Shown: in pieces, positions 11,201 through 26,326 of the stretch
Numbering within the stretch: the first letter of the stretch is position 1
Layout: the number at the start of each line of letters is the position of its first letter
Origin: Verrucomicrobiota bacterium
GTDB taxonomy: Bacteria > Verrucomicrobiota > Verrucomicrobiia > Verrucomicrobiales > Akkermansiaceae
Direction of reading: 5' to 3'
Assembly: GCA_037133195.1 (NCBI GenBank)
Contig: JBAXOP010000039.1
Span: 1-26,326, forward strand
DNA length: 26,326 bases
Position numbers and translations under genes: made by a program
The notes under the pieces: model-generated
The model's input: the letters and a program-made list of their open reading frames with translations, nothing else
Told to the model about the DNA's origin: nothing
Database searches by the model: none

Positions 11201-12182
11201 CGAGCGCCTTACGGCCTAGCATGATTCCGAGGTTCACGGTTTCCCCGGCCTGGTTGACGGGGCCGTATGGCGGCACATAGCCATGGGTGGAGGAGCCGTC
11301 GGATTTTGACCAAGCCATGCCATGGCCATAGGTGCCGAAGAGACTTTGGCCGGTGGCGCAGATGGCGGTGAGTTTGCGGATGGCAGGCAACACCTGGGCG
11401 TCTAGGGTGGCCAGATAGTACTCACTTAGAAACACGTTGTTATAGCCCCACGGCCAGGCCACCATTTGATTCAACGGAATGGTTAGGCTAAGGTTTTGCG
11501 AGGCGACCAAACGGGCATATGTTTGCACCTTCGACTGCACCGTGGCGTAGTAAGCATCGGTGGGTGACACACAAGCCAGCAGTGCCAGGCCGATGACGGC
11601 GTTACCTTCAGTATAGCCGCTATTGATCGAGTGGGACGCCAGCAAGGTGCAGGCCTTGGTGATGATGGCAGAGGATTTTGGGCAACTGAACGGGGCAGTG
11701 GCGCTGTAGCTACCCATAACTTGCAGCGTGAGTTGCACCGGCGATGGCAGCAACGCCCCGCCCCGCCACACCAATAACTTCAGAACACCCGCATTGGCGG
11801 ATTTTTCCGCCTCTCCGACCGCCAGCCCGAGGCTCTTGCGGGCGTCTGATGTGAAGGCCACCGGCGCGGACGCCGTACCGCTGGCACCCAGTATCACATC
11901 GTTGACTAACAACTGGCCGGCGGCCGGCGAACCGGCGTCGATTTGCGTTACTTTGATCTGCCTGCTCTCGCTGGTGAACGTTTCCGGGTTGAACATCCAC
12001 TCGTTGCCCGTGCTATAAATCCAGCCGCGTGCGCCGGTCGGGCCGAGGTTATAGGTATTGGTAGTATCCACCAAGGTGCCCGCAACCGTCAAATCCGGTG
12101 GCGCGGCCTGCACCCGTGCTGGCAGCGTGAGAAGTAACACTAGCACGCCAATTCCGGCAAGGCAGAGGGGGTGGTTTTTCAT
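5265..12182 (-). CDS. Giant secreted multidomain protein (PDZ-like / helical toroid-like N-terminus, HEAT-like repeats, PKD-like domain, 4x Ig/cadherin-like repeats, PA14, 3x Fn3)
   Basis: Complete 2305-aa ORF in the track with signal peptide 'MKNHPLCLAGIGVLVLLLTLPARVQA'. Domains recognised by eye:
- HEAT-like 'ARKGACQALGRIKP...DYHVRYYAADALKNLG' (aa ~540-640)
- PKD-like 'IDGNGASLVYTWSKL...TPGTYLVRLGVTDA' (aa ~825-915)
- four tandem ~90-aa repeats (aa 918-1281)
- PA14 'NFSSRHTGYINVPTSGNYTFILSADDNSKLWIDE...YHSLRLEYVEYGGENHFTLYW'
- three Fn3 modules with the pattern 'W..V.GA..Y.[IV][KQ]RS...GG.Y...YYYV'
- C-terminal 'DPDGDGLSNLVEYTLGTDP' acidic calcium-binding-like motif
The gene ends 34 nt upstream of the next gene's start. 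Confidence 0.85.
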   Translation of the reverse strand: MKNHPLCLAGIGVLVLLLTLPARVQAAPPDLTVAGTLVDTTNTYNLGPTGARGWIYSTGNEWMFNPETFTSESRQIKVTQIDAGSPAAGQLLVNDVILGASGTASAPVAFTSDARKSLGLAVGEAEKSANAGVLKLLVWRGGALLPSPVQLTLQVMGSYSATAPFSCPKSSAIITKACTLLASHSINSGYTEGNAVIGLALLACVSPTDAYYATVQSKVQTYARLVASQNLSLTIPLNQMVAWPWGYNNVFLSEYYLATLDAQVLPAIRKLTAICATGQSLFGTYGHGMAWSKSDGSSTHGYVPPYGPVNQAGETVNLGIMLGRKALAVAGDATIDPEIEPAITRARKYFGYFAGKGAVPYGHSPPEDLHDDNGKNGLATLLMALQSQEDMSSHAQYFAKSCTAAYNLRETGHCGPYWAHLWQPLGVNVGGPTAMAAYFQQIEWELDLVRCWDGSFVYHSATGAKAGAAGLGTDSDTACFLLTYATGLKKIYLTGKSQSAANYISAADVSEAITDGVYSLRNDLMALTSDQLIACLGSWSSQKRNWAAAELAKRSDASTKVATLLTMAADLTNLNARKGACQALGRIKPTAAASVLRDRLNDTDYHVRYYAADALKNLGSAASGVLSDMLTSITANAQPVEPINWADPYQIAYGDLGSAAFEGQLGNSISGVSTSLLYPAITAMSQSLGRGCLANTFRNALSLANVQALAPTITTALLTDHTICQGGLANACVSVLSKYNIDEGIPAAMTFLNQEYGRAWPTDSNTCQTALQKYGSTAVGTLPTLTSWNGNGYDLTATIAAIQTDTSTHTLAYFKTINTCTASATTVAMPVGSTNLSASAADIDGNGASLVYTWSKLRGAGGVTFSSNASLTSNTTTASFDTPGTYLVRLGVTDAVLDPNKFGPVTRDLTITVVPDPNRSPVATNQNVTTALNTAKDITLAASDADGNVLTYTVVSAPASGTLAGTPPDLTYTPVAGFTGTTSFTFKANDGKVDSSSATVTITVGTSTNSTPVAQNQYVTTLEDTPKTITLTGSDADLNPLTYSIVTGPAHGTLSGSAANRSYTPATNYNGSDSFTFTVNDGTATSGLATVVIGISAVNDAPVALAQSLSTLESTALPITLSGTDPEGYAISYQLASSPTHGTLSGVVPNLIYTPTALYDGGDSLSFTVTDSEGVVSVAATVSITISPVNQPPVALNRGVPVAVGSATGVVLDATDADNDPLTYIVMSQPLRGTLTGTAPNLTYTPVAGYNSIDSFTFKVNDGKADSNIATVFLSMGVVSAQVYTECYLWPGGFTGSWPDISSKTPDATRFDSILNISNTGWPAGFTDNFSSRHTGYINVPTSGNYTFILSADDNSKLWIDETLVVVEVFPNPGVSAPLHLTAGYHSLRLEYVEYGGENHFTLYWKSSSISQQVVPAGVLFHCLGSTAPLAPANLSATPLDSFVALAWSASPFATSYSVQRSLVAGGAYTTLASGLTTTSYQDSAVVNGSTYYYVVTATGTGGTSFVSNESAAIPVAAPVCVNLDYHPSSSIYMNGISSYSASDRGTASRVAPFDYDGINAAATAVNYWNTGSDGTAALASLKNSEGVATSIGVSALLVTHGSSSSLSGGLGSARLLKGGVTLSQSPNLLSYKTLFKLSGLDTTHNYQLALASQSGTTSTSATYRVGPVQQMVAGGAAASDWRNGLNYGLLDGLIPNSAGEIHVQAMLNTTSATLNGWQLIDRGVRTAAANAYTTIDTCSFGALGAATITDSNISITVPSGTAISSLTPTFVAAVGSTITPSTAQNFANTVTYRVRAENGTAYQDYTVRIIVAPNVVFSNTVLAITAASSGAEILSTGTLIAANHTGTSAVAPITLANGLVFGTSVAQMTSGWYASNQRTDTDAHGKVPLLTDATGFGKFMRSYTWTSSSAEYLDIPGLTPGHSYRLQLITPNPANCSVVVEGAAPVTWPGSQPSLLTAIWTAGDSTANIVLTRYVSEMEIHGYALHDVTPGFQPCPTGLTAVAGDGQIALSWNAVPGATNYTIKRSLTAGGPYTTLGNELGTSAIDASLANGTRYYYVISVSTALGESSDSGQASALPVLPPAPASPPANLVATAGINSVGLIWTAVSGASGYNVKRSLVSGGPYVMVGAAGGTGYTDVMVASGTTYYYVVSATNSGGESNNSGQVSATPISLVTAWRSEYFTPAEITTGLAADGADPDGDGLSNLVEYTLGTDPHGFTPPPLVVTRATGNSFTLSFVARAATGTGYAGCTRKYDLETSGDLSNPTSWQGSPGYINIVGGGQTITLTLPATAGKIFYRLNVRVE
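8340..9431 (-). repeat. Four tandem ~90-aa Ig/cadherin-like protein repeats inside the giant CDS
   Basis: Repeat units begin 'NRSPVATNQNVTT', 'TPVAQNQYVTT', 'PVALAQSLST' and 'PVALNRGVPV'. Each contains '[TS]L.[AG][ST]D.[DE]G..L[TS]Y.[IV]...P..GTL.G..P.L.YTP...[FY].G.DSF[TS]F.[VA]NDG'. Coordinates were derived from residue numbering (aa 918-1281). Confidence 0.75.
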
Positions 12183-12233
12183 GGGTTAGGAACGAGTACG
12201 CACCAAAAAACACAAGTTACGCGCTGATGTCGA

Positions 12234-12269
12234 GGCGAATGTTGATGCCTGTCGGCGAATGTTGATGCC
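12234..12269. promoter_or_regulatory. Two copies of a 16-nt direct repeat (GGCGAATGTTGATGCC) with 20-bp periodicity, upstream of the giant gene
   Basis: Perfect copies at 12234-12249 and 12254-12269, separated by 'tgtc'. They lie 52-87 nt upstream of the ATG at 12182, in the 199-nt gap between the two minus-strand genes. A regulatory role is inferred only from position and helical phasing. Confidence 0.4.
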
Positions 12270-12381
12270 CGGCACCTCCAACCCCATTTGATCGGTGTGG
12301 AAAACTCTCATGCCGTCATCACCCCGAATTTGGCTTAGGCCTCCTATAGTAATAAACCTCCCGAGTCACTTGGACCGTTAC

Positions 12382-15267
12382 TCATCGTTCCACTCCCTGC
12401 GCCTTGCGGGTTCTGTTGCAATAATCTACCAGCCGCACAGACTTCGGCGCAAAGGGAGCAACATGGATCGTGTTAGATCCGGGCTTGAGAAGGCGGGTGA
12501 TGTCGAGGCGCAGCGGCTTGCCGATGAAGCCGCCAGCGAAGCGGCCATTGACGGTCACGCTGGCGGCGGCTTCGGGTTCGAGTTCGTCCACTTCCAGACA
12601 GATGCGGGCCTTGGTTAGATCAAGATCGGCGGGGAGGGTACAAGTTCCAGCAAACGGATTTGCCGTCACCGGGCTGGTATTGACGTGTCGTCCTGCGGCA
12701 TTACGCAACCCATCCACCTCTGATGTGGTCGGGTTGGCGCTCAGAATGATTGTCTCCTTATCAGTGCCCTTGAGGGTGATGGTTTTTCCCCCGGCGATGC
12801 ATACGGCCTCCAATGTCTTGACCACGCCGAATGCCGGGTCATCACCATCCGCCAAACGCGCTACAAGCAGCAGGTGTTCTCCGGCGTTGATCCGTTGTTG
12901 CAGGCGCTCGCGCACATCTCGGCTGCGCTGGGCGTCGCCCGGCACACCGTAGCTTGCATTAACCACAACAAGTTTGGCAGGCTGTGTCTTATCCTCCACT
13001 GGCCGGGTATCGAGCACTGGGATTTCACGTTGCGGCTTCATGTCGCTAGTGATGCGGACGGGGAGTTGACGCGGTTGGCTCTGGAAAACGATCAGCACAC
13101 TTTCAGTCGGCTCCAGTGTGAGTGAAAATTCCGTTCCGCTAGCCGCCGGTTTACTCGGGATAGAAGTGATTTCGTTGCGCATTGGATCCCAGATTTCAGG
13201 TGTGCCATTGACGGCGGCGTGGAACGTGAACTGTCGGGCGGCTCCCTCACGGTTCTGGTTACAGACTAGGAATACGTCGTGGCCAGATTTCTGGCGATGC
13301 AATATATGCAGCCAGTTGCCGGTGTCGCCCGACACCACTTCCAGGGCAGGGTGAATGCCGGCATCATCAGTTAGCACTTTCTTCATGTCTGCGGCTGTGG
13401 GTTTTTCCGGCAAGAAATACAAGCGACCTCCAGCGGCGTTAGTCTTGCAGGCGCTCAGACCGGGGGTGGCCGCACCCCACAGCGCGTCTCGCAGGGTGGC
13501 AATGTCCTTGGCATCACGGCCGAGGGTAGCCGATTTACTTGGCAGCATGCCATAAGCAATGACCACGCCGCCCATGTCGAAGAACTCACGCGCCTTGGCC
13601 AGCGTCGGATAGGGAATCACCTCGACGGCTGGCATGACCAATACCTGATAAGTTTCCTTGTGCAGCGTGATCCCCTTCCCTGCTAGTGTGGCGTCCTTTT
13701 CCCAGGCGTCGTATTGCAACCAATCGCAGTCGTACTGCGCGTCCTGCAAGGTGCTGGTTAGCTCTTCCGGCCGCAGTTTCGCTCCAACGTGGTAACTCTG
13801 CCCAAGGTGCAACATGGCTACCGGCGCCACATGCCGCCCACCGGTTAGCATCAGGCTCAGGCGGTTGGTGTAATCGGCCCAAACTCGATAAAGCGGCCAG
13901 CGTGGCTCCTTGCCGCCGTTATAAAAATAGGGCGGGTAGTCGCCGTCGTAGGGTGCCCGCGGATTGAACGAGTGCGGAATGAGGAAATTGACGCCACGGA
14001 CTTGGTGCCAGTCGGCAAGCCACTTCATCGTTGGATAGGTAAGGTTTTGGTTATACCCGCCGAAAATTTCACAGAATGCGATATCGTTATCCTTGTTGTA
14101 GGTGTGCGAGACCGAGCTAGCCATCTTGGGCATCTGGTATTCACCCATATTGCGATTGCCGGGTTGCAATTGGCCGCAGACCAGATCCATGCCGCCCATA
14201 TCACTGAACTTCTGCAATTGCATCATGTTCCCCCCAGACATGTCACGGTTGAACATGTCGTTGCCGTGCTCCATGAAATGGCCCATCGAGAATACCTTGT
14301 GCTCGCGGCACCAGCGGCTCATGCCCCCATACATCGTGCGGCCCCACGACTCGGTGAAACAATCGAGATATGTATAATAGGCCGCAACCTGGTCATCTCC
14401 GATGAGCTTGAACTTATATCCAACCAATAATTTATTCAGGTCGAGATTGCGCTCGGCCACCAGCTTGGGAAAATCGCTCCCCCAGTCGCCCTGGGTTTCC
14501 GGCTCATCGTAGAAATAGCCGCTGATGGTTTTTCCGAAGTCACTCTTGAAGCGATCATAATGCGGCTGATAGACAGTCTTGATGAACCAATCAACGCAAG
14601 CCGGATCCGCTCCATCCACCGAGACGTATTTCTGTTGGCCGCCTTTCGTGCCGTTGAATTTCCAGGTGAATTTCATGATGCGCCAGGTGCCCGCCGGGGC
14701 ATTCCATTGCAGAGTGCCGCCCTTTACCGATGTCGTTAGATCCACCAATTTACTGCCGTCCACCGCCCCATCAACCTCGCGGCCGGCGATGACCCGGATG
14801 AGGTTCGGGTCGTTGTAACCGGTCTCGCTCACTACTTTCGGGCCCTCGACGCGAAGATCTGAGGCCACCAGGCGTTTGCTGCCATATTCGGGCGGCACGC
14901 GGCCGCCCATCATTTGGCTCGGCCACCACCAGTCGTCGTAGATGATCATGGTGAGGTCATTCTTGCGGGCGAAATCGAGGTTGATGCCCAGGTCGCGGTA
15001 CCAGCCCTCGCCGAGCCAATCCTTGTGCGGGCGAGGCTCGGCGGTGAATGTCCCATTATGGCCTTCCAATACCTTCTGCAATTCGCCTTCCAATTGGCTG
15101 CGTGTTTCATCGCCGTGCATCCAGAACAACGGACCGGTCAGGCGTCGCGCCTCCATCGGCAAGGTGTCAAATTGTTTTTCCAAGTCCATCCAGCCGGGTT
15201 CCATGGCATGCAGGGATGGAAGGGCGAGTAACACGAGTGCGCTTGTGGTAAATCTGGCTGATTTCAT
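12382..15267 (-). CDS. Secreted glycoside-hydrolase-like protein (family unassigned; TIM-barrel-like N-terminal half, C-terminal galactose-binding-like domain)
   Basis: The track ORF is 12382..15594, but I place the start at the ATG at 15265-15267. This gives 'MKSARFTTSALVLLALPSLHA', a typical signal peptide. The upstream 109 codons are low-quality and run through a tRNA fragment and a terminator. The body contains 'PLFWMHGDETRSQLEGELQKVLE...DWLGEGWYRDLGINLDFARKNDLTMIIYDDWWWPSQ'. The C-terminus contains 'VTVNGRFAGGFIGKPLRLDITRLLKPGSNTIHV'. This style matches large Bacteroidota/Verrucomicrobiota 'glycosyl hydrolase' proteins. Confidence 0.7.
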   Translation of the reverse strand: MKSARFTTSALVLLALPSLHAMEPGWMDLEKQFDTLPMEARRLTGPLFWMHGDETRSQLEGELQKVLEGHNGTFTAEPRPHKDWLGEGWYRDLGINLDFARKNDLTMIIYDDWWWPSQMMGGRVPPEYGSKRLVASDLRVEGPKVVSETGYNDPNLIRVIAGREVDGAVDGSKLVDLTTSVKGGTLQWNAPAGTWRIMKFTWKFNGTKGGQQKYVSVDGADPACVDWFIKTVYQPHYDRFKSDFGKTISGYFYDEPETQGDWGSDFPKLVAERNLDLNKLLVGYKFKLIGDDQVAAYYTYLDCFTESWGRTMYGGMSRWCREHKVFSMGHFMEHGNDMFNRDMSGGNMMQLQKFSDMGGMDLVCGQLQPGNRNMGEYQMPKMASSVSHTYNKDNDIAFCEIFGGYNQNLTYPTMKWLADWHQVRGVNFLIPHSFNPRAPYDGDYPPYFYNGGKEPRWPLYRVWADYTNRLSLMLTGGRHVAPVAMLHLGQSYHVGAKLRPEELTSTLQDAQYDCDWLQYDAWEKDATLAGKGITLHKETYQVLVMPAVEVIPYPTLAKAREFFDMGGVVIAYGMLPSKSATLGRDAKDIATLRDALWGAATPGLSACKTNAAGGRLYFLPEKPTAADMKKVLTDDAGIHPALEVVSGDTGNWLHILHRQKSGHDVFLVCNQNREGAARQFTFHAAVNGTPEIWDPMRNEITSIPSKPAASGTEFSLTLEPTESVLIVFQSQPRQLPVRITSDMKPQREIPVLDTRPVEDKTQPAKLVVVNASYGVPGDAQRSRDVRERLQQRINAGEHLLLVARLADGDDPAFGVVKTLEAVCIAGGKTITLKGTDKETIILSANPTTSEVDGLRNAAGRHVNTSPVTANPFAGTCTLPADLDLTKARICLEVDELEPEAAASVTVNGRFAGGFIGKPLRLDITRLLKPGSNTIHVAPFAPKSVRLVDYCNRTRKAQGVER

Positions 15268-15360
15268 TGAATTTATAGGGCTTGGTGTTTCGAGCAGCAT
15301 CGGATTTCGGCGGGGTTCCATGGCACTTGTACCTCTCCCCATACGGGCATTCTTCCCCGA

Positions 15361-15389
15361 ATTATTCACCTCAACACCTCGATTTTCAA
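15361..15389 (-). promoter_or_regulatory. Candidate sigma70-type promoter for the hydrolase gene starting at 15267
   Basis: The minus strand reads TTGAAA (15389-15384), then the 17-nt spacer ATCGAGGTGTTGAGGTG, then AATAAT (15366-15361). It lies about 94 nt upstream of the ATG. This is a pattern match only, and promoter rules for this phylum are poorly known. Confidence 0.3.
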
Positions 15390-15428
15390 GGTGGGCCCGC
15401 AGGGATTTGAACCCTGGACCAAGGGTGC
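15390..15428 (-). other. Orphan tRNA 3' fragment (variable-region end, T-arm, acceptor 3' strand); probable att-type integration scar
   Basis: The minus strand reads CTTGGTC-CAGGG-TTCAAAT-CCCTG-CGGGCCC-A-CC. That is a 5-bp T-stem (CAGGG/CCCTG), a canonical 7-nt T-loop (TTCAAAT), a 7-nt acceptor 3' strand, discriminator A, then CC. No complementary 5' acceptor strand (GGGCCCG), D-arm or foldable anticodon arm exists in the roughly 60 nt upstream. Confidence 0.6.
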
Positions 15429-15451
15429 AGATTCTAAAAGCAGGCAAATTG

Positions 15452-15491
15452 GCGGATAAAAAGAAAGCCGGGCCATTGCTGGCCCGGCTTT
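15452..15491 (-). terminator. Rho-independent terminator (minus strand)
   Basis: Perfect 11-bp stem AAAGCCGGGCC (15464-15474) / GGCCCGGCTTT (15481-15491) with a 6-nt loop. On the minus strand the stem is followed by CTTTCTTTTTAT. On the + strand only TTTGATGG follows, so the minus orientation is favoured. It lies downstream of the minus-strand gene ending at 15820. Confidence 0.6.
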
Positions 15492-15626
15492 GATGGCGAT
15501 TCAGGGCAGAGTTCTTATCCCTATTGTTTTTGACCGACAGAAGAAATTTGCGTTCAGCTAGCGAACTTTTCCCGACAGAGGACCGCCAGCGCACGCAGTT
15601 TCTCAGGCAGTTCCTAAGCTAATTGC

Positions 15627-15819: not shown

Positions 15820-16221
15820 TCAAAAAGTCCGGCGCAGTGAGCCATTCACATATTCGGCGGTGCGGCCGTTTTTGAGGTCGCCGAAAACCGAACCGCCGCT
15901 GACCCTGACCCGCACGACGTCCGAACCATAGGAGCGGCGCAATGATCCATTCACGTACTCCTGGATGCGCCCGTTTTTGGTGACCGCCGCCACGATTTCG
16001 CCGTCGGTTGAGGCGTCCACAATATCCGAGCCGTAGGATCGGCGCAATGAGCCGTTGACGTATTCCTGGATGTGACCGCCCTTCACCCGGACTGTGGAGG
16101 CGTCGGCAGCCATGGCTGGTGGCAGGGTCAGCACGGATAGGACGGCCAGGATGCACAAGACGAAGGCGGCAGTAAAGAGGCGGAGGATGGCGCGGCGCAG
16201 CTTGGGAATGGGGGAGGACAT
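15820..16221 (-). CDS. Small secreted protein with three ~33-aa internal repeats (hypothetical)
   Basis: The track ORF is 15820..16269. I prefer the ATG at 16219-16221, which gives 'MSSPIPKLRRAILRLFTAAFVLCILAVLSVLTLPPAMA', a signal peptide with an AxA site. The mature part has three copies of '[KN]G[HR][IT].EYVNGSLRR[ST][YF](GSD[IV]V)'. No family is recognised. Confidence 0.6.
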   Translation of the reverse strand: MSSPIPKLRRAILRLFTAAFVLCILAVLSVLTLPPAMAADASTVRVKGGHIQEYVNGSLRRSYGSDIVDASTDGEIVAAVTKNGRIQEYVNGSLRRSYGSDVVRVRVSGGSVFGDLKNGRTAEYVNGSLRRTF

Positions 16222-16472
16222 GGCTGGAGTTTTGGTGGAAGAAAAATCCTTGCCGATGAACATACCCATCGCATCAGCAGAGTCGAGTCATCTTTTGAAG
16301 ACGGGGGAGGCTTTTGAGATTTTGAGGGCAGTCGCGAAATTTTTATCGCGGCGGGGGGGATGAAACCTGCGTGTGCAACCCGCCGGCGGCCACCCACAAT
16401 ACGCTCACCGGCTACCCAACCTAACTTAATGTACAGCATTATCAGTTACTTTCACAGAAACATAGACATATC

Positions 16473-17378: not shown

Positions 17379-19028
17379 ATGTCAGAGCATTCCTTACCCA
17401 AACTGCCCGCAAAGCTGTCACCGAAACTGATGGTACTCGGCGGCCTCCTGTTTCTCAGTTTTCTATGCCTCGGCTATTACGGGTGGACGGAGACGCTGCG
17501 CGAGGCGACCGGCGGGGGCCAGCCATCAGAGTCGTTGTTTCACACGGTGGAACTGGTGACCGGAGAGACGGCGCTCGTGGTGGATGAGATCCATAGCCAG
17601 CACTGGGCACTGATGGTCGCAAAATGGGGGATCAAGAGCTTGCTCGCAGTGGCCATTTTTCAATCGGGGATTTACCTTTTCCGGCGGCAATTGCGCCGCT
17701 GGAAGTTTCGCAAGGTCTCCGGCCATCAGGTGTTTCTCGGGCTGGACACATCCAACCAGGAACTTATCAGACTGGCACTGGCAGATGGCAGGCAGGTGGC
17801 GGTGATTGATAAAGACGAGCATCACCCGCGTCGCGCAGATCTCGAATCGCAAGGTGTCCTTTTCCTGTGTGGCAGCCCGCTGGACCCAGGGTTGTTGCGC
17901 AGCGCCGGCGCAGCCCGGGCCAAGCGGGTGGTCGCGGGAACGGGTAGCGATGAGAAAAATGCGGCCGCCGCAGAACAGGTCGCGGCACTGGTGAAGCAGG
18001 AAGCCGGAAAATCCGTTGAAATTCTGGTGCCGATCGAGTGCCCAAAAATGCGCGAATTGCTCCGCGAGCGCTGGGAGCTTTTGTCCCATGCACATGGGTT
18101 TCACGTTCGCTTGGTAGGCTTCCGCCCGGCGGCGCTCCGCCATGTCCTGACCCAGCTCGCCGGGTTGCTGGCCAATTCCCCAGACATCTGCGGCCGCGGA
18201 CCACGAATCCTGCTAGCCGCGCCTGCAGATTTTGCCTTGGCGTTGTTGGATCTGGCCGTGCCCTTCCTGCAAGTGACTGGCGATGCATTGCCGTCCTACG
18301 ACATCTGTGGCGTCGCCGACAGCGAGGCCCGGCGCTTTCTCAAACAACATCCAGACCTCGGTCTGGTGGCGGATGTGGTGTTCCATCCCGAGTCTGTGGA
18401 TGAAGCGCCGCTGGCGGAGGGCCTTGATGACAGTGAGTTCGATGTCGCCTTGGTGCATCTCGATTCGGAGGCCGCCACCCTGGCTGCCGCCGACGCTCTC
18501 CTCCGCAGCAATCGCTTTCGGGTCGGGCGGGTGCAGGCCATCATTCACGCGTCTCCGGTCATCCGCATCAAGCCCGATGAACGCCTGCAGGTTCTATCAC
18601 TTTTCATGCACGGCATGAGCGCGCCCGAATTCGGCGATCACTCGCTCGAACAACTGGCCAGGGACAACCACGAGACCTATCTGGCGGGCCTGGTCCCCGC
18701 CGAACGCGCCAGCGCCTCGTCGTGGCAGGCCTTGGGCGAGGCATTCAAGGACTCAAACCGCTGGGCCGTCTTGCACCGGAATGTCAAATTGGCCATCTGG
18801 CAAAATACGGCCGATTCCGACCAGCCCGCCATCCTCGAAATGTTGGCCTGTTCCGAGCACCAGCGGTGGATGGGCGAAAAAATCATGGCCGGCTGGCGCG
18901 GCGGAGCCACCCGCGACAATTTCCACAAAATCCACCCGGACATCCGTCCCTATGCCGACCTTTCGGAGCCGGCCAAGGAGAAAGACCGCGTGCAAGTCCG
19001 CAAGGCGCTGGGTCTGAAAAATCAATAA
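17379..19028 (+). CDS. Membrane protein: 2 predicted TM helices, TrkA-N/RCK-like Rossmann domain, C-terminal RyR domain
   Basis: Complete 549-aa ORF in the track. TM candidates 'LMVLGGLLFLSFLCLGYYGW' and 'WGIKSLLAVAIFQSGIYLF'. TrkA-N-like 'HQVFLGLDTSNQELIRLALADGRQVAVIDKD...GVLFLCGSPLDPGLLRSAGAARAKRVVAGTGSDEKN', where the GxGxxG motif has degenerated to GLDTSN. The C-terminal 'LARDNHETYL' and 'EHQRWMGEKIMAGWRGGATRDNFHKIHPDIRPYADLSEPAKEKDRVQVRKAL' match the RyR-domain signature (PF02026) as I recall it. Confidence 0.8.
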   Translation: MSEHSLPKLPAKLSPKLMVLGGLLFLSFLCLGYYGWTETLREATGGGQPSESLFHTVELVTGETALVVDEIHSQHWALMVAKWGIKSLLAVAIFQSGIYLFRRQLRRWKFRKVSGHQVFLGLDTSNQELIRLALADGRQVAVIDKDEHHPRRADLESQGVLFLCGSPLDPGLLRSAGAARAKRVVAGTGSDEKNAAAAEQVAALVKQEAGKSVEILVPIECPKMRELLRERWELLSHAHGFHVRLVGFRPAALRHVLTQLAGLLANSPDICGRGPRILLAAPADFALALLDLAVPFLQVTGDALPSYDICGVADSEARRFLKQHPDLGLVADVVFHPESVDEAPLAEGLDDSEFDVALVHLDSEAATLAAADALLRSNRFRVGRVQAIIHASPVIRIKPDERLQVLSLFMHGMSAPEFGDHSLEQLARDNHETYLAGLVPAERASASSWQALGEAFKDSNRWAVLHRNVKLAIWQNTADSDQPAILEMLACSEHQRWMGEKIMAGWRGGATRDNFHKIHPDIRPYADLSEPAKEKDRVQVRKALGLKNQ

Positions 19029-19618
19029 CGCGCCCCGCTGTCGAAACCGCCAAGCAGGCCACCCCGCATCCGCCCCATGCAATCTCATCCTGACTCCACA
19101 CCTGAGCCGACATCGGCAAGGTCTGGCATGGCGGAGTCTGCGGATGGCATCCCTTTTCCGTCGTTCCCGTCCTTGACAGCACAGGCGTTTCAACTAAGAT
19201 CCCAAGGTCGCTATGCACTCCACCCCATCGAAACCGCTTTTCACCATCACCGTGCCACAACCGAAGGCCTTGGTGAAGAGGGCGACCGTGACCTCGGTTT
19301 CGCAGAGGCAGAAGGTCACTACCGCGCAGGCGCTCAAGGGTTACGCCTATCTGAAATCCCACAGCTCCCGCAGCAACTCCGCGAGATGAGCCGACTCGGG
19401 GTGGTGGACCGGGCCAGCCGCAAGGCGCTGTGGACATCCCCCCAATCCCGAACCGGCCGCAATTTCTTGCCGATTTCGTTTGACGGGCCTGCGTACCGGC
19501 GTTTGACTTTCCCCAGCAGACCCGCCGGGCCTCTCCTCTCCTTCTGGAGGGTGATGCTTACTTCGGCGGGTGTTTCTTTTTCAGGCGATGGCACCAATGA
19601 CAGAAGGGAATCGAGGCC

Positions 19619-19915
19619 ATGAAATATGAAAAGGCGGCGCTGACCTTCGAGGAGCAGGCCACGCAACTGATCAACCGCGGACTCATCGCGGACCACAGGC
19701 AACTCATTGAACGCCTCCAGGCCACGAACTACTATCGCTTTACCAGAGGCATCATGCTGTTGATCATTCGCCAGTGGCTGGAGCGAGTGAACTCATCCCA
19801 TTCGTGGCATACCCGCGTGGAAAGCCTCTTCGACGACTTCCCTGAAACCGACCTCGTCGCGCTAGGGTTGGACCCGGCATGGCGTGAACACCCAATCTGG
19901 AACCCCGCCTCATGA
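19619..19915 (+). pseudogene. Internally deleted Abi_2-family (AbiD/AbiF-like abortive-infection) gene relic, 98 codons
   Basis: 'MKYEKAALTFEEQATQLINRGLIADHRQLIERLQATNYYRF' matches the characteristic N-terminus of Abi_2 (PF07751) proteins. 'WHTRVESLFDDFPETDLVALGLDPAWREHPIW' matches their C-terminal tail. The roughly 200 aa normally between them, including the conserved R..x..AHH region, is missing. The junction lies near 19742-19750. Its stop (TGA, 19913-19915) overlaps the ATG at 19912 of the next gene. Confidence 0.6.
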
Positions 19916-22900
19916 AAAAAGCTCCATCATCCCAAAGCCGCCTCGTCCGCGTCTTCATCAGCTCGACCTTCCGTGATTTCATGGGAGAGCGGGATGAGTT
20001 GGTGAAGAAGATCTTTCCGGAGTTGCGCAGTCGCTGCAAGGAGCGGTTTGTGGAGGTATTGGAGGTGGACTTGCGCTGGGGGATTACGGAGGAGCAGAGC
20101 AAGCAAGGCGAGACGCTGCGCATCTGCTTGCGAGAGATCGACCGTTGCCGGCCCAGCGCGCCTGTGTTTTTCATCGGGATGCTCGGTGAGCGTTACGGGT
20201 GGATCCCGCCGCAGGATTTCTATCCGAAAGACGTGTTGGACGACCCGGACTTGGAGTGGGTGAAGGATCACGTCGGAGGCAAGAGCGTGACCGAATTGGA
20301 AATTCTGCACGGTGTGCTGCGCGACGCGAAGATGCGTGATAAGGCGTTTTTCTACTTTCGAAACGACGGTTATGAGCAACGGCATTGGGATGAGATTCAT
20401 ACAAGTCCCGCATATTCAAATCTCGCCCCCCCGGTCACGCAGGACGACTTCACCAATGCGGATTCCCGGGCGGGCAAAGCAGATGCGGCGAAGCTGAACG
20501 AGCTGAAGCAACGGGTGCGTGATGCCTCATTCAAGTGGGAGCCCAAGGACTATGAGACGCCGGAGAAACTGGCCAGCATGGTGCTCGAGGATCTCTGGAG
20601 CGCCATCGACGAAATCTTCCCGGCCAGTTCGGTGCCCGATGCCTTGGCGCGCGAAAGCTTGGAGCATCGCGTGTTCATGGAAAATCGCAGCAAGGCCTAT
20701 GTCGAGCGCGTTGGGTTATTTGAAAAGCTGGACGCATTCGTGGACACGGCGAAAATCGATGCATTGGATTCAGGCGACGAGGATATCGAGGATGATGCCA
20801 CCAAGACAGCACCGCCACTTCCCGCGGTGAGAGTGGTTCTGGGCGAATCCGGAAGCGGGAAAAGTGCCCTGCTGGCGGCGTGGCTCGAGCCCCGGATGAA
20901 GGGTGTTGTGTTTTTCCATTTCACCGGTGCCACGCCTGCGAGCGGTTCCGGTTCCTCGATCTTGCGCCGCCTGCTTGCCACACTGCGCCAACGCGGGGCG
21001 GTGGCTGCATCGGAGGCGATTCCACAATCTGACGAGGCCTTAGCGCAGGCCCTGCCGATGTGGCTGGAGCGTCTCTCCGAACAAGGCGGCGGAATCCTGC
21101 TCATAGATGCGGTGAACCAACTCGGGTCCGCCCGTGACCGCGAACTTTGGTGGTGGCCAGAGCAGTGGCCCGCGAATGTGTGCATCATCATCAGCACCCT
21201 GGCCGGCGACTCGCTCCGTGAGATGCAGCGCCGCGGTTGGATCACGGAGGATCTTGTCATCCGCGTCCAGCCGCTCCAGACCGGAGAAAAGCACGCGATC
21301 ATGGATTCCTATCTGAAGCTCTTTACCCGGGAACTGGAGCCCCGGCTTCAGGAACAGATTCTTGCTGCACCACAGACGGCCAATCCGCTTTTCTTGCGCA
21401 CGGTGGTTGAGGAATTGCGCCTACGCGCCCAACACACGACATTGGAGAGCAACCTCGCCGCCATGCTCAGTTGCCCCGATCCGGCCGCGCTCTTTGTGCA
21501 TGTTTTGAAGAATCTGGAGCGGGACTTTACTCCGCGCGAACACCCCGGTCTGGTCCGCCGGGCGCTGGGGCTCATGGGAGCGGCTCAGCGCGGGCTTTCG
21601 GAAAATGAGATCCTGCAACTCCTCTCGCCATCGAGCACCCCGGCCTCCGACCCCTTGCCTCGCCACTACTGGGCTGCGCTTTACCTAGCACTGGAAGATT
21701 CCCTGGTCAGCCGCGATGGTCAGTTAGGGTTTTTCCACGACTACCTGCGACAAGCGGTGCTGCGCGAATATCTCGACGAGGAACACGAGCGAGTGGCCGC
21801 CAATCGACGTCTGGCCGAGACCGTCACGCACTGGAAAGATGCGGACGCGTTTGGTTCCAGCCTCCGCGCCTACGGGTTTGAGTTTGGCATCCGGCACCTT
21901 TTGGCCATTGGCGGGTTGGATGCCGCGACACAACTGCTGCTGAATGCAAACTACCGGCAAACCGCCGCCATCGCCCTCGGGGCCGCGGAACCCATTCAGC
22001 GACAAGTGGAAGCCACCCGCATGGAAGCGACCCGCGCCGGTGGCATCGACGTGGCGGCATCCGCACAACTTACCGTTCAGGCATTGAAAGGGCGGGTTGA
22101 TCTCAAGTGCCACCTGCGCAGCCATCTGGACGATTGTGCCAGGCTAGGGAAATGGGAAGAGGTGATGAAGTTGGCTGCCGCTGAGGAGAACGATGAGGCA
22201 AGGTTCATGCTCGGGCTGCGGGCCGCTTTGGCGGGACGTCCTGTGAAGAGCGATGATTTCAAGGCGTTTCTGTATTCTCTCGGCTTGACGGTGAATGAAA
22301 GGAAATTGCGCGGGGCTCCTGTAGAGGTGGAAGCCAAATTGGTTTCCAGCTTCAGAATCTTAGGTATCCGGGTTGACATCGATGATATTACCCAAGGTGA
22401 CGTATGGGATATCGGCCTGGAACTCCGCGATGGCGCGATCCGGTTCTCAATCAATGGGACGCTGGTGGCGGCCAAATTGGTGGAGAGTTCAATCGGTAGC
22501 GCCTGCCACAACCTGCCGGAGGATTTGCGCTTTCTGAGCGCCACCAGCCTAACGGAACTCGTCGATATCTCGCCATTGGCACGGTTCCGAAATCTTCGCA
22601 AGCTGGACCTGTCCGAGTGTTCTTCTTTGAAAGATCTGTCACCACTCGCCGATTTGCCGGAGATGATCACATTGAAACTGGATCTGTGTAACAATCTCCA
22701 AGACATCGCACCGCTTGGAAGATTGGCAAGCCTCCTTAATTTGACCCTGCGAGGCTGTGAATCGCTCGAAGACGCATCCCCTCTCGCCAGTCTGTCTGCC
22801 TTGAGGCATCTAGAACTCATTGCAAATTTCACCCTGCTCAAAAACGCTGCTGCGATCGGTAATCTGCATGCCCTGGAAGTTCTCATTCTAGATATCAACG

Positions 22901-24741
22901 AATCACTCAATGATCCGACTCCCATCGGCAATCTGCATTCCTTGAAAATCCTTGAAATATCTCATTTCAATAACTGGGAGAATCTTGATTTTGTATCCCG
23001 GATGCGCGGGCTTGAACAACTCATCTGGACGGGGTGCGATTCGCTCAACGACATGGCCGGCTTGCGGAACCTTTGCGAATTGGAATTCCTGCTCTTGAAT
23101 GGATGCCAGCGATTGGTGGATCTACGCCCTCTGGCTGAACTCGGAAAGCTTTCCAAATTGGTTCTTTTCAACGCGAAGAAAATTGCAGACCTCCGGCCTC
23201 TTGGCCATCTTCGATCACTTCGGCAAGTCAGCATAGAGGGTTCGGATACGCTTCATGAGTTAGCGCCGCTTCGAAATTTAAATAACTTGGAGGAACTGTC
23301 GGTGTCAAAATGTCGTCAGTTGGAAGCAGTGGATGACTTGCTCGGATTGCCGACCCTGGGTGTTTTGAAGATCAATGATTGCCCAAAGGTTGCTTCGGTC
23401 ACTCTGACTGGATTGCCGAACCTTCGTGAGGTTGATCTGAGTGGCTGTCAGAGAATTTCTTCACTCGCCTCACTCGCAGCTGCGCCGCGGATCACCAGCC
23501 TGAATCTTGATGGATGCACCGGCATAGCTGACTTCAGTCCGGTGGCCGCCATTCCCAGCTTGAAAGTGCTCAAAGTGAATGGCTGTAAGCAACTATCGGC
23601 ACTGCCAGATTTTGACGATTCCAGCCATCTCGAACAAATTGAATTCACTGGCCTTAGTCGCGTCCGCTCGATCGAGCCATTGCACAAATCTCGCCAACTG
23701 AGAATCATTGAAAGTGACTTCCATCCCGGCATGGTCGCTGAAATCCTCGCTTCGGCGGCCGTGGCTCGTCCTGATGACCCATTCATCTCCAGCAATGCCT
23801 CGGCATGGCTTGGAGAGGTGAGTCGCTTTGCTGATAACAGCGGGAGTGATCGCGAGCGCCTAGCCACCACTCTGGGACGAGCCTTCGGCAGGCTGTCGGA
23901 CAACCATCCGATTGTGCCGCGCTACGAGGCGTTTCTCAAGAGTCGGCCGGAATTTTCCGCTGAGCCATGGAAAGCCTGGTTCCGGGGAACCGCAATCGCC
24001 AGGCATCACGCGTTCGATGTTCTCGTGAGTCGGATTGAGCGACTGGACTTGCTCTCGCTCACGCCAGGAGTCGTGGGCGGGGTGTGCGCCGCATTGGCGG
24101 ATGACACTGCCCCGGCGGAGCACCAGAACTGGGCGCGGGCATGGCTGGAGCAATTCGAAAAAGTCCACAGCGGCCGCGCTCATGCGTTGCTCCAGGTGAG
24201 CGCCGAAATCTGCTTGGCATACGCCCGCCTCGGTGAGAGTGAAGCCCTGGAGCGCTGGCTGACAAGATTCACCGATCCGTCCGATCCCGCAGCCCTTGAT
24301 CCGGTGCAGGTGGCTCTTGGGAACTGGCGGTTAGGGAGGGGTGATTTCGATGCAGCCTACCGGCATGCGGCCGCCGTTCAAATGCCCAGGATCAGCGACC
24401 CCCTGCTGATGAAATTGGCGGAGGCCTGGACCGTGCTGGAATCGGGGAGAGCGGGCGAGATTCTGCTGGCGATTGTGGATCCGTCCTTGCGCTGCGAATT
24501 GATGAAAATACTGGCCAGCAACCGGGAGTTTGTTGCGGTGCCATTGAATGTGCAGCGCCTGATGGTGGCGGCCGGGGATCGCCCCGAAGCACTCGGCAAT
24601 CTCATTGCGGAGGTCGGCGCCACAGCTGACCCGGCACACTTCGAGGAATTATGCGCGCTCCTGCAAACCAGCGCTGAGGCGATGCGCTCGTGGCGGCGCG
24701 ATCGGCTGCAGCAAATGCTCGAGGCCATCGACAAGGAATAG
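19912..24741 (+). CDS. NLR-architecture STAND protein: DUF4062-type N-terminal domain, NACHT-type P-loop NTPase, helical region, ~17 Cys-containing LRRs, unassigned C-terminal helical domain
   Basis: Complete 1609-aa ORF in the track. Motifs recognised:
- DUF4062 signature 'RVFISSTFRDFMGERDEL...FFIGMLGERYGWIPP' (aa 13-100)
- Walker A 'GESGSGKS' (nt 20842-20865)
- Walker B 'ILLID' (nt 21094-21108)
- 'VCIIISTLAG' (NACHT 'hhhTSR'-like)
- 'LQPLQTGEKHAIMDSYL'
- 'NPLFLRTVVEEL' (nt 21382-21417, GxP/PLxL-like)
- 23-24-aa LRRs of the type 'L..L..L.L..C..L.DL.PL' from about nt 22540 to 23710
- C-terminal domain starting 'FHPGMVAEILAS' at nt 23719. Confidence 0.9.
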   Translation: MKKAPSSQSRLVRVFISSTFRDFMGERDELVKKIFPELRSRCKERFVEVLEVDLRWGITEEQSKQGETLRICLREIDRCRPSAPVFFIGMLGERYGWIPPQDFYPKDVLDDPDLEWVKDHVGGKSVTELEILHGVLRDAKMRDKAFFYFRNDGYEQRHWDEIHTSPAYSNLAPPVTQDDFTNADSRAGKADAAKLNELKQRVRDASFKWEPKDYETPEKLASMVLEDLWSAIDEIFPASSVPDALARESLEHRVFMENRSKAYVERVGLFEKLDAFVDTAKIDALDSGDEDIEDDATKTAPPLPAVRVVLGESGSGKSALLAAWLEPRMKGVVFFHFTGATPASGSGSSILRRLLATLRQRGAVAASEAIPQSDEALAQALPMWLERLSEQGGGILLIDAVNQLGSARDRELWWWPEQWPANVCIIISTLAGDSLREMQRRGWITEDLVIRVQPLQTGEKHAIMDSYLKLFTRELEPRLQEQILAAPQTANPLFLRTVVEELRLRAQHTTLESNLAAMLSCPDPAALFVHVLKNLERDFTPREHPGLVRRALGLMGAAQRGLSENEILQLLSPSSTPASDPLPRHYWAALYLALEDSLVSRDGQLGFFHDYLRQAVLREYLDEEHERVAANRRLAETVTHWKDADAFGSSLRAYGFEFGIRHLLAIGGLDAATQLLLNANYRQTAAIALGAAEPIQRQVEATRMEATRAGGIDVAASAQLTVQALKGRVDLKCHLRSHLDDCARLGKWEEVMKLAAAEENDEARFMLGLRAALAGRPVKSDDFKAFLYSLGLTVNERKLRGAPVEVEAKLVSSFRILGIRVDIDDITQGDVWDIGLELRDGAIRFSINGTLVAAKLVESSIGSACHNLPEDLRFLSATSLTELVDISPLARFRNLRKLDLSECSSLKDLSPLADLPEMITLKLDLCNNLQDIAPLGRLASLLNLTLRGCESLEDASPLASLSALRHLELIANFTLLKNAAAIGNLHALEVLILDINESLNDPTPIGNLHSLKILEISHFNNWENLDFVSRMRGLEQLIWTGCDSLNDMAGLRNLCELEFLLLNGCQRLVDLRPLAELGKLSKLVLFNAKKIADLRPLGHLRSLRQVSIEGSDTLHELAPLRNLNNLEELSVSKCRQLEAVDDLLGLPTLGVLKINDCPKVASVTLTGLPNLREVDLSGCQRISSLASLAAAPRITSLNLDGCTGIADFSPVAAIPSLKVLKVNGCKQLSALPDFDDSSHLEQIEFTGLSRVRSIEPLHKSRQLRIIESDFHPGMVAEILASAAVARPDDPFISSNASAWLGEVSRFADNSGSDRERLATTLGRAFGRLSDNHPIVPRYEAFLKSRPEFSAEPWKAWFRGTAIARHHAFDVLVSRIERLDLLSLTPGVVGGVCAALADDTAPAEHQNWARAWLEQFEKVHSGRAHALLQVSAEICLAYARLGESEALERWLTRFTDPSDPAALDPVQVALGNWRLGRGDFDAAYRHAAAVQMPRISDPLLMKLAEAWTVLESGRAGEILLAIVDPSLRCELMKILASNREFVAVPLNVQRLMVAAGDRPEALGNLIAEVGATADPAHFEELCALLQTSAEAMRSWRRDRLQQMLEAIDKE

Positions 24742-24763
24742 CCAGACATCGCAGTTAGAAACC

Positions 24764-26326
24764 ATGAAAATCCTCGTCCGGCCCGGTTCAACGATCAAGG
24801 AGAAGACTTCCAGCGTTAGGAGTTTTCTCAATTCGCTGGGTGCACAGGCCGACCGTTATGCCGATCCGCAGACTTGTGAGATGACTCAGAACACCAAGCT
24901 CAACCTGTTTGGCATCTGGGTTCCCATGACGAAGGAACTTTACCAGAGCGCCGAATGGGAATACCAAATCATCAGAAAGCAGGGTACTCTCCGCTTCACG
25001 ATCAACGGGAACACCATCGCCGCAAAATGCCTTGGCAAACTCGAGGATGGCTGGATCCGAGGTTTGCCTCAGGAGCTTGAAAACCTGACGCTCACGCATC
25101 CAAAAGACACTGCGGGTGACCCTGGCAACCTGGCTGCGCTTGCTCCTCTGGGAAAGTTGGTCCGGCTCAATCTGAGCGGGTGGAGCGATCTAGTGGACCT
25201 CGGCGGGATTGAATCCCTGAAGTTGCTGAGGATGTTGAATTTGGATGGTAGCAAGTCTTTAACGAACCTTGCGCCTCTCGCCTCGCTTCACGAATTGCGC
25301 GTCCTCGATCTAGCCAGTTGTACGGTTCTCGAGGATCTGTCGGCCCTGGCAACCCTCGAGTGGCTTCGCTACCTGGATCTTTCGCGCAGCAGCAGGATCC
25401 GCGATTGCAGCGCTCTTCGCGGGCTGAAACGCCTTAATTCCTTGAAGTGGACTTATTGCGGCAAGCGCAAGGATGTGAATCTGCTAGGCGGGATTAGCTC
25501 TTTGGAGTGGCTCGATCTCGGGAATGGTACCTGCCTCGAGGATTTGTCCGGGCTCGCCCAATTGGAAAATCTCAAATCGCTCACACTCGCGGACGGCAAT
25601 GCCATCAAGTCGATTGAGGCACTGGCCTCACTCCAGCAACTTGAGCGACTTGACATGAGTGGGTGTGAATCCCTGGGAGACCTCAAGCCATTGGCAAATC
25701 TGCGTGCACTGGCTCATTTGGACCTGAGCAATTGCTCTAAAATTAGGAGCATCGCCGCGCTATCCAGTTTGGAATCATTGAAATCATTGGACTTGAGCGA
25801 TTGCTATCAGGTGAACAATCTCCGGCCTTTGGCGTCTCTAAAAAACCTCGAATCCCTCGCGATTACCAGAATGAAGCGGCTCAAGTCGATTGAACCGCTG
25901 CGAAACCTGCCGAAACTTTTAAAACTCAGGTCCAGTTTTCATCCGGGCAGCGTGGCGGACGTCTTGGCGTCTCTGGCTGTCACTCGCACGGATGTCGACC
26001 TGATATCTAGCACTGCCAAGAGATGGCTTGCGGAGGCGATGCGGTTTGATTCGGAGAATCAGGCAGAGCGCGAAAACCTCACCGGCACATTGGGTGAAGC
26101 CTTCAATCTGTTGCCGCAAGATCACGAGATTCTGCCTCATTTCGAAGAATTTCTGCTTCGCCACCCTGAGTTTAGTGCCCGCCCGTGGAAATCGTGGCTG
26201 CTGGGATCGATCCTCCATCACGGATTCGATGTTTTCCGCCAGCGCGTCGAGCGATTGCCACTGCCCAAACTCTCCCCGGGCGGCATCGGCGGTGTTTGCG
26301 TGGCTCTGCCGGATGGCGATGCGCCG
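24764..26326 (+). CDS. LRR protein, paralogue of the sensor half of the upstream NLR-like protein (no NTPase); 521 codons, with the 3' end beyond the window
   Basis: Absent from the ORF track because it runs off the window. I read all triplets from the ATG at 24764 to 26326 and found no stop. It starts 22 nt after the upstream stop. 'GTLRFTINGNTIAAKC' (nt 24983-25030) parallels 'GAIRFSINGTLVAAKL' of the upstream protein. About 11 LRRs of the same Cys-containing type span roughly nt 25124-25933. After that, 'FHPGSVADVLASLAV...HPEFSARPWKSW...GGIGGVCVAL' parallels 'FHPGMVAEILASAAV...RPEFSAEPWKAW...GVVGGVCAAL'. Confidence 0.85.
   Translation, partial: MKILVRPGSTIKEKTSSVRSFLNSLGAQADRYADPQTCEMTQNTKLNLFGIWVPMTKELYQSAEWEYQIIRKQGTLRFTINGNTIAAKCLGKLEDGWIRGLPQELENLTLTHPKDTAGDPGNLAALAPLGKLVRLNLSGWSDLVDLGGIESLKLLRMLNLDGSKSLTNLAPLASLHELRVLDLASCTVLEDLSALATLEWLRYLDLSRSSRIRDCSALRGLKRLNSLKWTYCGKRKDVNLLGGISSLEWLDLGNGTCLEDLSGLAQLENLKSLTLADGNAIKSIEALASLQQLERLDMSGCESLGDLKPLANLRALAHLDLSNCSKIRSIAALSSLESLKSLDLSDCYQVNNLRPLASLKNLESLAITRMKRLKSIEPLRNLPKLLKLRSSFHPGSVADVLASLAVTRTDVDLISSTAKRWLAEAMRFDSENQAERENLTGTLGEAFNLLPQDHEILPHFEEFLLRHPEFSARPWKSWLLGSILHHGFDVFRQRVERLPLPKLSPGGIGGVCVALPDGDAP

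Follow-up and report, generated by a model that had tools for sequence, protein, structure and literature searches.

What does a sensor protein that lacks a signalling domain do directly behind an immune receptor that already carries a sensor of its own? NLR (nucleotide-binding leucine-rich repeat) and STAND (signal transduction ATPases with numerous domains) immune receptors are generally portrayed as single chains whose sensor auto-inhibits the nucleoside triphosphatase (NTPase) in cis. The stretch analyzed here, called the window in the following, comprises 26,326 nucleotides (nt) of contig JBAXOP010000039.1 (assembly GCA_037133195.1) from a Verrucomicrobiota bacterium of the Akkermansiaceae. 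It ends in two plus-strand genes, A and B. Gene A encodes an NLR-like protein with DUF4062, STAND NTPase, and leucine-rich repeat (LRR) parts; gene B, cut by the window end, resembles only the sensor half of gene A. The original prediction took gene B for an NTPase-less paralogue of that half and offered three readings, namely, a decoy or co-sensor, an inhibitor or guard, and a reservoir for recombination. On the sequence evidence assembled below, gene B encodes a genuine stand-alone sensor protein, maintained by selection, of an NLR-like system. In the relatives of this system NTPase and sensor are encoded separately, so that gene B is an ordinary free-standing sensor and not a stripped-down copy of gene A.

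Gene B and the sensor half of gene A

The features of both genes, in window coordinates, are as follows.

19912..24741, plus strand: gene A, 1609 amino acids, DUF4062, STAND NTPase, and helical region fused in frame to a sensor module (open reading frame (ORF), Pfam)
19948..20214, plus strand: DUF4062 domain of A, residues 13-101, presumed NAD+-hydrolyzing (NADase) effector (PF13271)
20827..21369, plus strand: STAND NTPase core of A, residues ~306-486 (Pfam, motifs)
22246..22551, plus strand: pre-LRR domain of the A sensor half, residues ~779-880 (aligns with B and all free-standing sensors)
22258..22259, plus strand: fusion scar in A (single 170-nt gap in the DNA alignment with the closest related locus, L006)
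22594..23706, plus strand: LRR region of A, ~16-17 units (repeat parsing; Pfam families such as LRR_4 and LRR_14)
23719..24738, plus strand: C-terminal domain of A, residues 1270-1609, all-alpha solenoid (alignment A1, AlphaFold)
24742..24763, plus strand: spacer between A and B, 22 nt (sequence, junction listing, blastn collinearity)
24764..26326, plus strand: gene B, first 521 of 730 codons, free-standing sensor, cut by the window end (translation)
24764..25063, plus strand: alpha/beta domain at the N-terminus of B, residues 1-~100 (alignments A2/A3, AlphaFold)
25076..25933, plus strand: LRR region of B, ~12 units (Pfam LRR_4, repeat parsing)
25937..26326, plus strand: start of the C-terminal alpha-solenoid of B, residues 392-521 of 392-730 (BLAST against A)

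In gene A, the DUF4062 domain is recognized with 48.7 bits (E 9e-13, cut-off 24.7), and residues 92-96 read GERYG, a sequence compatible with the "E-Y" motif of the Evangelion preprint. The nSTAND1 family reaches 28.5 bits against a cut-off of 27.1; the matches to NACHT, AAA_16, AAA_22, and NPHP3_hel all lie under their cut-offs. A Walker A motif (GESGSGKS) is located at residue 311 and a Walker B-like sequence (LLIDAV) at residue 396. The sensor module is made up of a pre-LRR domain without its first strand, ~17 LRRs with units of ~23 residues of the form LxxLxLxxCxxLxDLxPLxxLxx, and the C-terminal alpha-solenoid.

The stop codon of gene A (24739-24741) and the ATG of gene B (24764) are separated by the 22 nt that had been predicted, and gene B repeats the pre-LRR, LRR, and post-LRR parts of gene A in the same order. 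BLASTP aligns the in-window part of B with A at E 4e-65 and full-length B at E 3e-144, with 44% identity across 596 amino acids. The resemblance goes beyond generic LRR similarity, as the flanking domains match separately. The pre-LRR domains by themselves (A 779-872 against B 14-105) are found at E 3e-10 with 26% identity, the match including GAIRFSINGTLVAAK in one and GTLRFTINGNTIAAK in the other; the in-window post-LRR domain matches A 1270-1401 at E 5e-45, with 69 of 132 residues (52%) identical. Over the complete C-terminal domain, B is 57% identical to A. A hand count had given 47 identities in the first ~88 residues past FHPG; the recount over 88 residues gives 46. The LRRs of both proteins are of the same 23-residue type, of which B has ~12 units, and LRR_4 is recognized in B with 107 bits in 7 stretches. 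In the full 730 residues of B, Pfam finds LRR families only; neither a DUF4062 domain nor an NTPase module nor any other nucleotide-binding oligomerization domain (NOD) was detected, as had been foreseen. The N-terminus of B, MKILVRPGST, corresponds to the conserved first strand of the sensor family (here MKILVRP), and the cap domain aligns along its entire length with 19 other sensors.

The part of gene B beyond the window end was obtained from contig L001 (ENA ERZ4224321 NODE_5074, 16.9 kb), which overlaps the window across 8722 bases with 2 mismatches; the protein of gene A is found identical on this contig and on a Logan contig. The complete gene B (L001 7160-9352) encodes 730 amino acids, aligns with A up to ~15 residues before the C-terminus of A, and shows GGVCVAL, WARNWLEQ, AEICLAHARLG, and FTDPSDPAALDP, which are C-terminal motifs of the family. 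The expectation that more copies may follow was not borne out: there is no third sensor copy on L001, and gene B is followed by a gene for a 668-amino acid TIR_2 protein, one for a vWA/metallopeptidase-like protein on the opposite strand, and one for a vWA-PKD protein.

AlphaFold models both terminal domains of the sensor with high scores. The C-terminal domain is predicted as a 19-helix solenoid (predicted local distance difference test (pLDDT) 89.5), for which the PDB holds weak, generic TPR-like matches (template modelling (TM) values of 0.3-0.36). The N-terminal domain (pLDDT 88.6; blocks over residues 1-90 at 93-98) is modelled as a small alpha/beta domain before the first LRR, and the PDB fold search returned no match for it (best E 0.5). 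In these models neither domain looks enzymatic, and the PDB fold searches allow no function to be read from either fold.

Split architecture of the family and the fusion in gene A

Related loci were drawn from species-representative genomes, metagenomes, and exact-protein look-ups, and all of them are metagenome contigs or metagenome-assembled genomes (MAGs); the three genome matches come from a Luteolibacter sp., a member of the Verrucomicrobiaceae, and a Puniceicoccaceae MAG, and the window itself is listed at NCBI as a Verrucomicrobiota MAG. In every relative (about 16 loci; those from tblastn are L003-L013, L016, and L018-L020) the counterparts of A 1-~780 (NTPase) and A ~780-1609 (sensor) are separate, adjacent ORFs in different frames. 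Protein collections give the same picture. Among NTPase homologues of at least 53% identity, about 65 clusters were recovered, all with lengths of 776-856 amino acids and free of LRRs, and about 60 representative carriers of the C-terminal domain are all at most 1139 amino acids long and bear the domain at their end. The C-terminal domain, the best-conserved portion of the sensors, is a distinct family with 34 invariant columns, including GG..C, W...WL, E.C.A.AR, and FTD..D...LDP (alignment A1). The sensor ORF starts either at its own ATG 0-30 nt past the NTPase stop or at an overlapping one (ATGA or similar), translational coupling of the two genes being frequent, and each free sensor opens with the conserved strand MxKIxIRF (alignments A2 and A3). 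It is this boundary between NTPase and sensor genes with which the start of gene B coincides. Frameshift errors are an unlikely source of the split ORFs because of their conserved starts and different frames. All of this argues that a split NTPase with one or two sensor genes is the ancestral state and that the sensor-only gene is the ancestral form. The original view of gene B as a paralogue of the A sensor half holds insofar as the two are homologous; B is not a full-length NLR stripped of its NTPase.

It is gene A that deviates from the family, and the 1609-amino acid fused protein is seen in the window genome only, among the relatives collected. The closest locus, L006, from a Luteolibacter sp. 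MAG, served as reference. It has three genes, for NTPase, sensor A, and sensor B, with the NTPase stop and the sensor A start overlapping as ATGA; its proteins share 74-85% of their residues with A and 80% with B. The only gap in the DNA alignment is a segment of 170 nt (L006 1328-1497) that is absent from the window after position 22258. The deletion took the end of the NTPase gene (its last ~40 codons and the TGA) along with the start of sensor A (~17 codons, which contain the first strand); as 170 equals 3x56+2, it joins the NTPase frame to the sensor frame. The deleted NTPase tail holds the motif RW..TGKPEWEE, which is conserved in all ten split NTPases examined. The alignment indicates that gene A is a derived, lineage-specific fusion of NTPase and sensor brought about by one 170-nt deletion.

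Between the window and L006, synonymous divergence (dS) of the NTPase module (0.24) is about half that of the two sensors (0.45-0.51); this may reflect a different history (recombination) or different codon constraints of the two halves of the locus. In L003, one sensor seems to be broken into two ORFs (6721-7554 and 7286-8737).

Gene B as a probable alternative sensor

One NTPase gene followed by two tandem sensor genes is found in six loci (window, L006, L012, L018, L019, and L020); single-sensor loci include L007, L008, L009, L010/L011, and P0199. Of the pairing that had been proposed for a survey, the combination of a fused full-length protein with a sensor-only gene is unique to the window genome, and it is the combination of one NTPase with two tandem sensors that recurs. 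Between co-resident sensors, identity amounts to 21-28% in the N-terminal domain and about 30% in the LRRs (measured for A/B and L012), but to 40-80% in the C-terminal domain. Ancient subtypes can be told apart by the N-terminal domain: the IRLSEK..CP subtype is found in the second sensors of L012, L018, L019, and L020 and in L003b, and the "VRP" subtype in B, L009_s, L020_s1, P0031, P0036, and P0041.

In L012 (Ga0172376_10007307, 2366-7356), the proportion of synonymous differences (pS) between the two sensors is 0.00-0.24 over ~160 codons of the C-terminal domain versus 0.7-0.86 elsewhere, and L019 (11490-16150) has one 40-codon block of the C-terminal domain with a pS of 0.00. These tracts indicate gene conversion between tandem sensors, confined in L012 and L019 to the core of the C-terminal solenoid, and look like concerted evolution of the constant part in anciently diverged sensors. 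Divergent cap and LRR regions combined with a similar, converted C-terminal domain form the pattern expected of variable recognition parts and a constant partner-binding face. For A and B themselves, the longest exact nucleotide word in common is 14 nt, and synonymous sites are saturated (pS 0.59-0.80) across the whole C-terminal domain, even where the proteins are 90% identical. Conversion in such a 90%-identical stretch (A1456-1485) was considered and rejected, third-position identity being ~50% and no common word exceeding 14 nt.

In the tree of the C-terminal domain, A and B are sisters (199 of 200 bootstraps), and the two sensors of L012 also group as sisters. Recent lineage-specific duplications, which such a tree might suggest, were dropped as an explanation in view of the conversion tracts in L012 and of co-resident N-terminal domains that belong to different ancient subtypes; because of the conversion and the ancient subtypes, the tree is unable to date the duplications. 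The A/B pair must certainly be older than the split between the window organism and L006.

Gene B is retained in L006 with 80% identity, 730 amino acids in both, and zero indels, and the ratio of nonsynonymous to synonymous divergence (dN/dS), which averages both lineages, is 0.25 (cap 0.19, LRR 0.24, C-terminal domain 0.28), compared with 0.26 for the NTPase and 0.30 for sensor A. These values indicate that gene B is under purifying selection. The LRR unit counts are equal in the window and L006, ~17 in A and ~12 in B. A spacer of 22 nt with similar sequence is also present in L006 and in L016 and L017, two contigs that are ~95% identical in DNA to L006; its conservation points to co-transcription of A and B. 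On these two contigs, gene B itself is truncated. In L016, the NTPase (834 amino acids) and sensor A (843 amino acids) are intact, the homology to B ends after codon 40, and a different TrkA_N-RyR gene follows the remnant on the other strand. L017 comprises the end of sensor A and the first ~113 codons of B and then continues with unrelated sequence; the NTPase lies beyond the reach of the contig. This truncated gene was one of the 2 proteins matched when the N-terminal domain alignment was searched against an index of 5.8 billion proteins. Unless L016 and L017 are assembly chimeras, B would have been lost twice among close strains, which makes it an optional accessory.

Taken together, gene B would, on balance, be an optional, alternative specificity subunit acting in trans in a split NLR-like system. 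As the NTPase of the family has no sensor of its own and the sensor gene lies directly downstream, the sensor would act on the NTPase in trans. It would bind the NTPase protein and hold it off; the variable cap and LRR part would bind an invader-derived ligand, and the constant alpha-solenoid would contact the shared NTPase and/or the TrkA_N-RyR protein encoded nearby (see below). The solenoid is the best candidate for partner binding because sensors with a common NTPase remain alike in this part, even through conversion. Ligand binding would then license oligomerization of the NTPase, and the clustered DUF4062 domains would hydrolyze NAD+. Two anciently diverged sensors behind one NTPase would provide two specificities for one signalling core, with B as the second, optional sensor. 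The fusion would have recreated a canonical single-chain NLR, gene A, and left B as the sole free sensor in the window genome, where it could possibly engage the fused A by hetero-association via the C-terminal domains. Physical association, ligand sensing, NADase output, the engagement of fused A by B, and an anti-phage defence role of the locus are all inferred. Of the three original readings, the best fit is the co-sensor, acting together with the NTPase protein.

Several points weigh against this assignment. Substitutions between orthologues are not in excess on the predicted concave face of the LRRs, neither in B (0.18 versus 0.20, p 0.85) nor significantly in A (0.39 versus 0.28, p 0.09), so that B bears no positive sign of an arms race. 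If the tail with the motif RW..TGKPEWEE is a docking site for free sensors, B may have lost its partner in the window genome. In PADLOC-DB 2.0, no model matches A, and B has only a spurious 17-bit match to MTase_II; the defence role therefore rests on DUF4062/STAND homology and on neighbourhoods rich in TIR and NLR genes. With relatives that are all metagenome contigs or MAGs, the breakpoints in L016 and L017 could be assembly chimeras.

Alternative roles, neighbouring genes, and known systems

The loss of a partner leads to the first of the alternatives, by which B would be an orphaned remnant that lost its counterpart once A had been fused and the NTPase tail deleted, and that is still intact since little time has passed. 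This is unlikely. The fusion deletion did remove the tail conserved in the ten split NTPases together with the first strand of sensor A, and the two truncations in close relatives suggest that loss of B is tolerated. On the other hand, the B ORF extends over the full 730 codons behind a conserved spacer and start, and its dN/dS (averaged, as said, over both lineages) does not exceed that of the NTPase; the C-terminal solenoid is intact in both A and B, and that the tail serves for docking is conjecture.

As an inhibitor or guard, gene B would act like an antitoxin, either by occupying the sensor-binding surface or by hetero-dimerizing with the sensor half of A. STAND sensor domains are auto-inhibitory in general, and the C-terminal domain common to both proteins could mediate the hetero-association. 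An essential inhibitor of a toxic NADase would, however, not be readily lost; the losses of B argue against such a role, with L016 keeping NTPase and sensor A intact beside a B gene cut to 40 codons, and there are many single-sensor loci. This second original reading is accordingly disfavoured and appears quite improbable.

Equally improbable is that B works apart from the NTPase, for instance, as the ligand-binding partner of one of two other proteins encoded at the locus, a TrkA_N-RyR protein upstream of gene A and the TIR_2 protein downstream of gene B. The former is the following feature.

17379..19028, plus strand: TrkA_N-RyR protein, 549 amino acids, N-terminal hydrophobic segment (Pfam TrkA_N and RyR)

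What speaks for such an independent function is that a gene for a TrkA_N-RyR protein (550-620 amino acids) adjoins the cassette in almost every locus with enough flank (also in L010/L011), and that TIR_2 genes adjoin it in the extension of the window, in the P0199 locus, and in L019. Sensor genes, however, always follow directly downstream of the NTPase gene, and stop and start often overlap; the TrkA_N-RyR gene varies in position and orientation, the TIR_2 proteins are not orthologous (no tblastn match), and the fusion in the window shows sensor and NTPase to function as a unit.

Least probable is a silent or semi-silent donor cassette that would diversify the sensor of A by recombination, the third original reading: conversion between tandem sensors does occur in L012 and L019, but in the constant C-terminal domain and not in the LRRs, A and B are saturated at synonymous sites with no long common word, B has its own conserved start, the conserved spacer, and a dN/dS typical of purifying selection, and the LRR unit numbers (17 versus 12) differ between the two and are stable between species.

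The TrkA_N-RyR protein combines an NAD-binding Rossmann/RCK-type domain (TrkA_N) with a C-terminal RyR domain, and an N-terminal hydrophobic helix is present in all six copies tested (window, L006, L007, L008, L010, and L016). Position, strand, and sequence vary, with 25-88% identity between copies. It is probably the third component of the cassette, and a nucleotide-binding protein in the vicinity of a presumed NADase hints at the role of an effector or of a read-out of NAD+ or ADP-ribose; nothing relevant on TrkA_N-RyR proteins was found in the literature. Copies are located at L006 6249-8105, L007 6020-7738, L008 17073-18812, L010 11066-12814, L015 1917-3605, L016 6550-8223 (minus strand), L018 16320-18044 and 18264-19982, L019 19540 onwards, and in the P0199 locus. 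Near this gene, a small protein of the IceA2-like type (PF05862, 82.7 bits) is repeatedly encoded, at 15820-16269 (minus strand) in the window, L008 3187-3534, L018 20418 onwards, and L019 19088-19504; the window and L008 copies are 64% identical and come from different verrucomicrobial families.

The TIR_2 gene (L001 9476-11482) begins ~124 nt past the stop of B and thus outside the window. Its 668-amino acid product has a C-terminal TIR_2 domain (63.6 bits), ThsB-like PADLOC matches, and a large N-terminal region without annotation; tblastn found no orthologue in the loci searched (L003-L015). The TIR_2 genes that adjoin the cassette in the P0199 locus, where the gene overlaps the NTPase start, and in L019 are unrelated to it. 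Between the TrkA_N-RyR gene and gene A, two plus-strand ORFs with overlapping stop and start, 19077-19622 (181 amino acids) and 19619-19915 (98 amino acids), run into gene A. The 98-amino acid ORF overlaps the ATG of A, and its first 42 residues match the N-terminus of AbiD in PADLOC (E 1.4e-8). Neither these two ORFs nor the TIR_2 gene of L001 were retained as system components, as tblastn gave no counterparts in L003-L015. The split cassettes also adjoin DUF4062-STAND paralogues with fused TPR or WD40 (TEP1-like) sensors; such DUF4062-NLR islands in Verrucomicrobiota are found at L003 362-14573, L008 11028-16992, L018 4945-8469, L020 14415 onwards, and P0199. The minus-strand genes at 1433-15594 of the window, for two GH106 alpha-L-rhamnosidase-like proteins and one 2305-amino acid DUF6288/cadherin-like/PA14 protein, appear unrelated to the NLR-like locus.

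Gene A alone is a conventional STAND/NLR-like member with a DUF4062 effector. It has in common with the single-chain STAND proteins Avs and bNACHT the order of an effector at the N-terminus, a STAND NTPase in the centre, and a repeat sensor at the C-terminus, and presumably also their logic of ligand-triggered oligomerization leading to abortive infection. In contrast to these systems, the sensor is here normally a separate polypeptide, with up to two per NTPase, and is composed of LRRs and two family-specific domains, with no Avs or NLR match in PADLOC. In NWD1, NPHP3, and TEP1, as in A, DUF4062 directly precedes a NACHT-like NTPase, and an NPHP3-type helical domain is a further likeness; eukaryotic and TEP1-like DUF4062 proteins, however, have fused WD40 or TPR sensors, whereas the LRR sensor described here is provided in trans, in one or two copies. 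For Swarozyc and Evangelion, DUF4062 has been reported to be a TIR-like NADase by which abortive infection is carried out (bioRxiv 10.64898/2026.05.01.722283 and 10.64898/2026.06.25.731849). These systems share the domain with A but are single-gene systems without a STAND module.

In the literature searched, no description of an LRR sensor encoded as one or two separate proteins was found. "Split proteins" are mentioned in passing for Avs7/Dsr1 in a Methods section (PMC13581612); nothing else relevant on split, paired, or trans-sensor bacterial NLRs was found. Plant paired NLRs (RGA4/RGA5, RRS1/RPS4) and NAIP-NLRC4 likewise divide recognition and signalling between adjacent, co-regulated genes, and in plant sensor-helper networks one signalling unit likewise serves several sensors, which is an analogy only. 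In plant pairs and NAIP-NLRC4, each partner is a complete NLR and possesses a NOD of its own, and plant pairs are typically arranged head-to-head, the sensor carrying an integrated decoy. Gene B differs in all these defining features: it has no NOD, lies in tandem with A on the same plus strand at a distance of 22 nt, and contains no non-LRR Pfam domain that could represent an integrated decoy, so that the analogy with paired plant NLRs drawn originally fails. Another parallel in organization is offered by type I restriction-modification, where the specificity subunit HsdS is separate from the HsdM/HsdR core and occurs in alternative copies with recombination among them. Like HsdS, the split family has a constant partner-binding part, variable recognition parts, and multiple copies beside the core genes; unlike HsdS, its folds and chemistry are unrelated to restriction, and recombination is seen only in the constant domain.

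The following picture of the family may, tentatively, be drawn. It would be a naturally split NLR with a DUF4062-STAND core and one or two interchangeable sensors of ancient subtypes, whose solenoids are kept matched to the core by selection and gene conversion, and with a TrkA_N-RyR protein as a fixed third component; the window would record the birth of a single-chain NLR by a 170-nt deletion, next to a free second sensor. The family would point to a conserved TrkA_N-RyR partner and bring the DUF4062 TIR-like NADases, which were described only very recently, into an NLR-type context with several genes. Its features, sometimes two divergent sensors, a second sensor gained or lost between strains, and one sensor fused back onto the NTPase, would make it a simple bacterial model of how recognition is coupled to NOD oligomerization in trans and of how one signalling core acquires several specificities, problems that also arise with the plant sensor/helper NLR networks and with NAIP-NLRC4. 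If this holds true, the window would represent a living intermediate that illustrates how NOD-LRR architectures and the division of labour between sensor and helper can interconvert.

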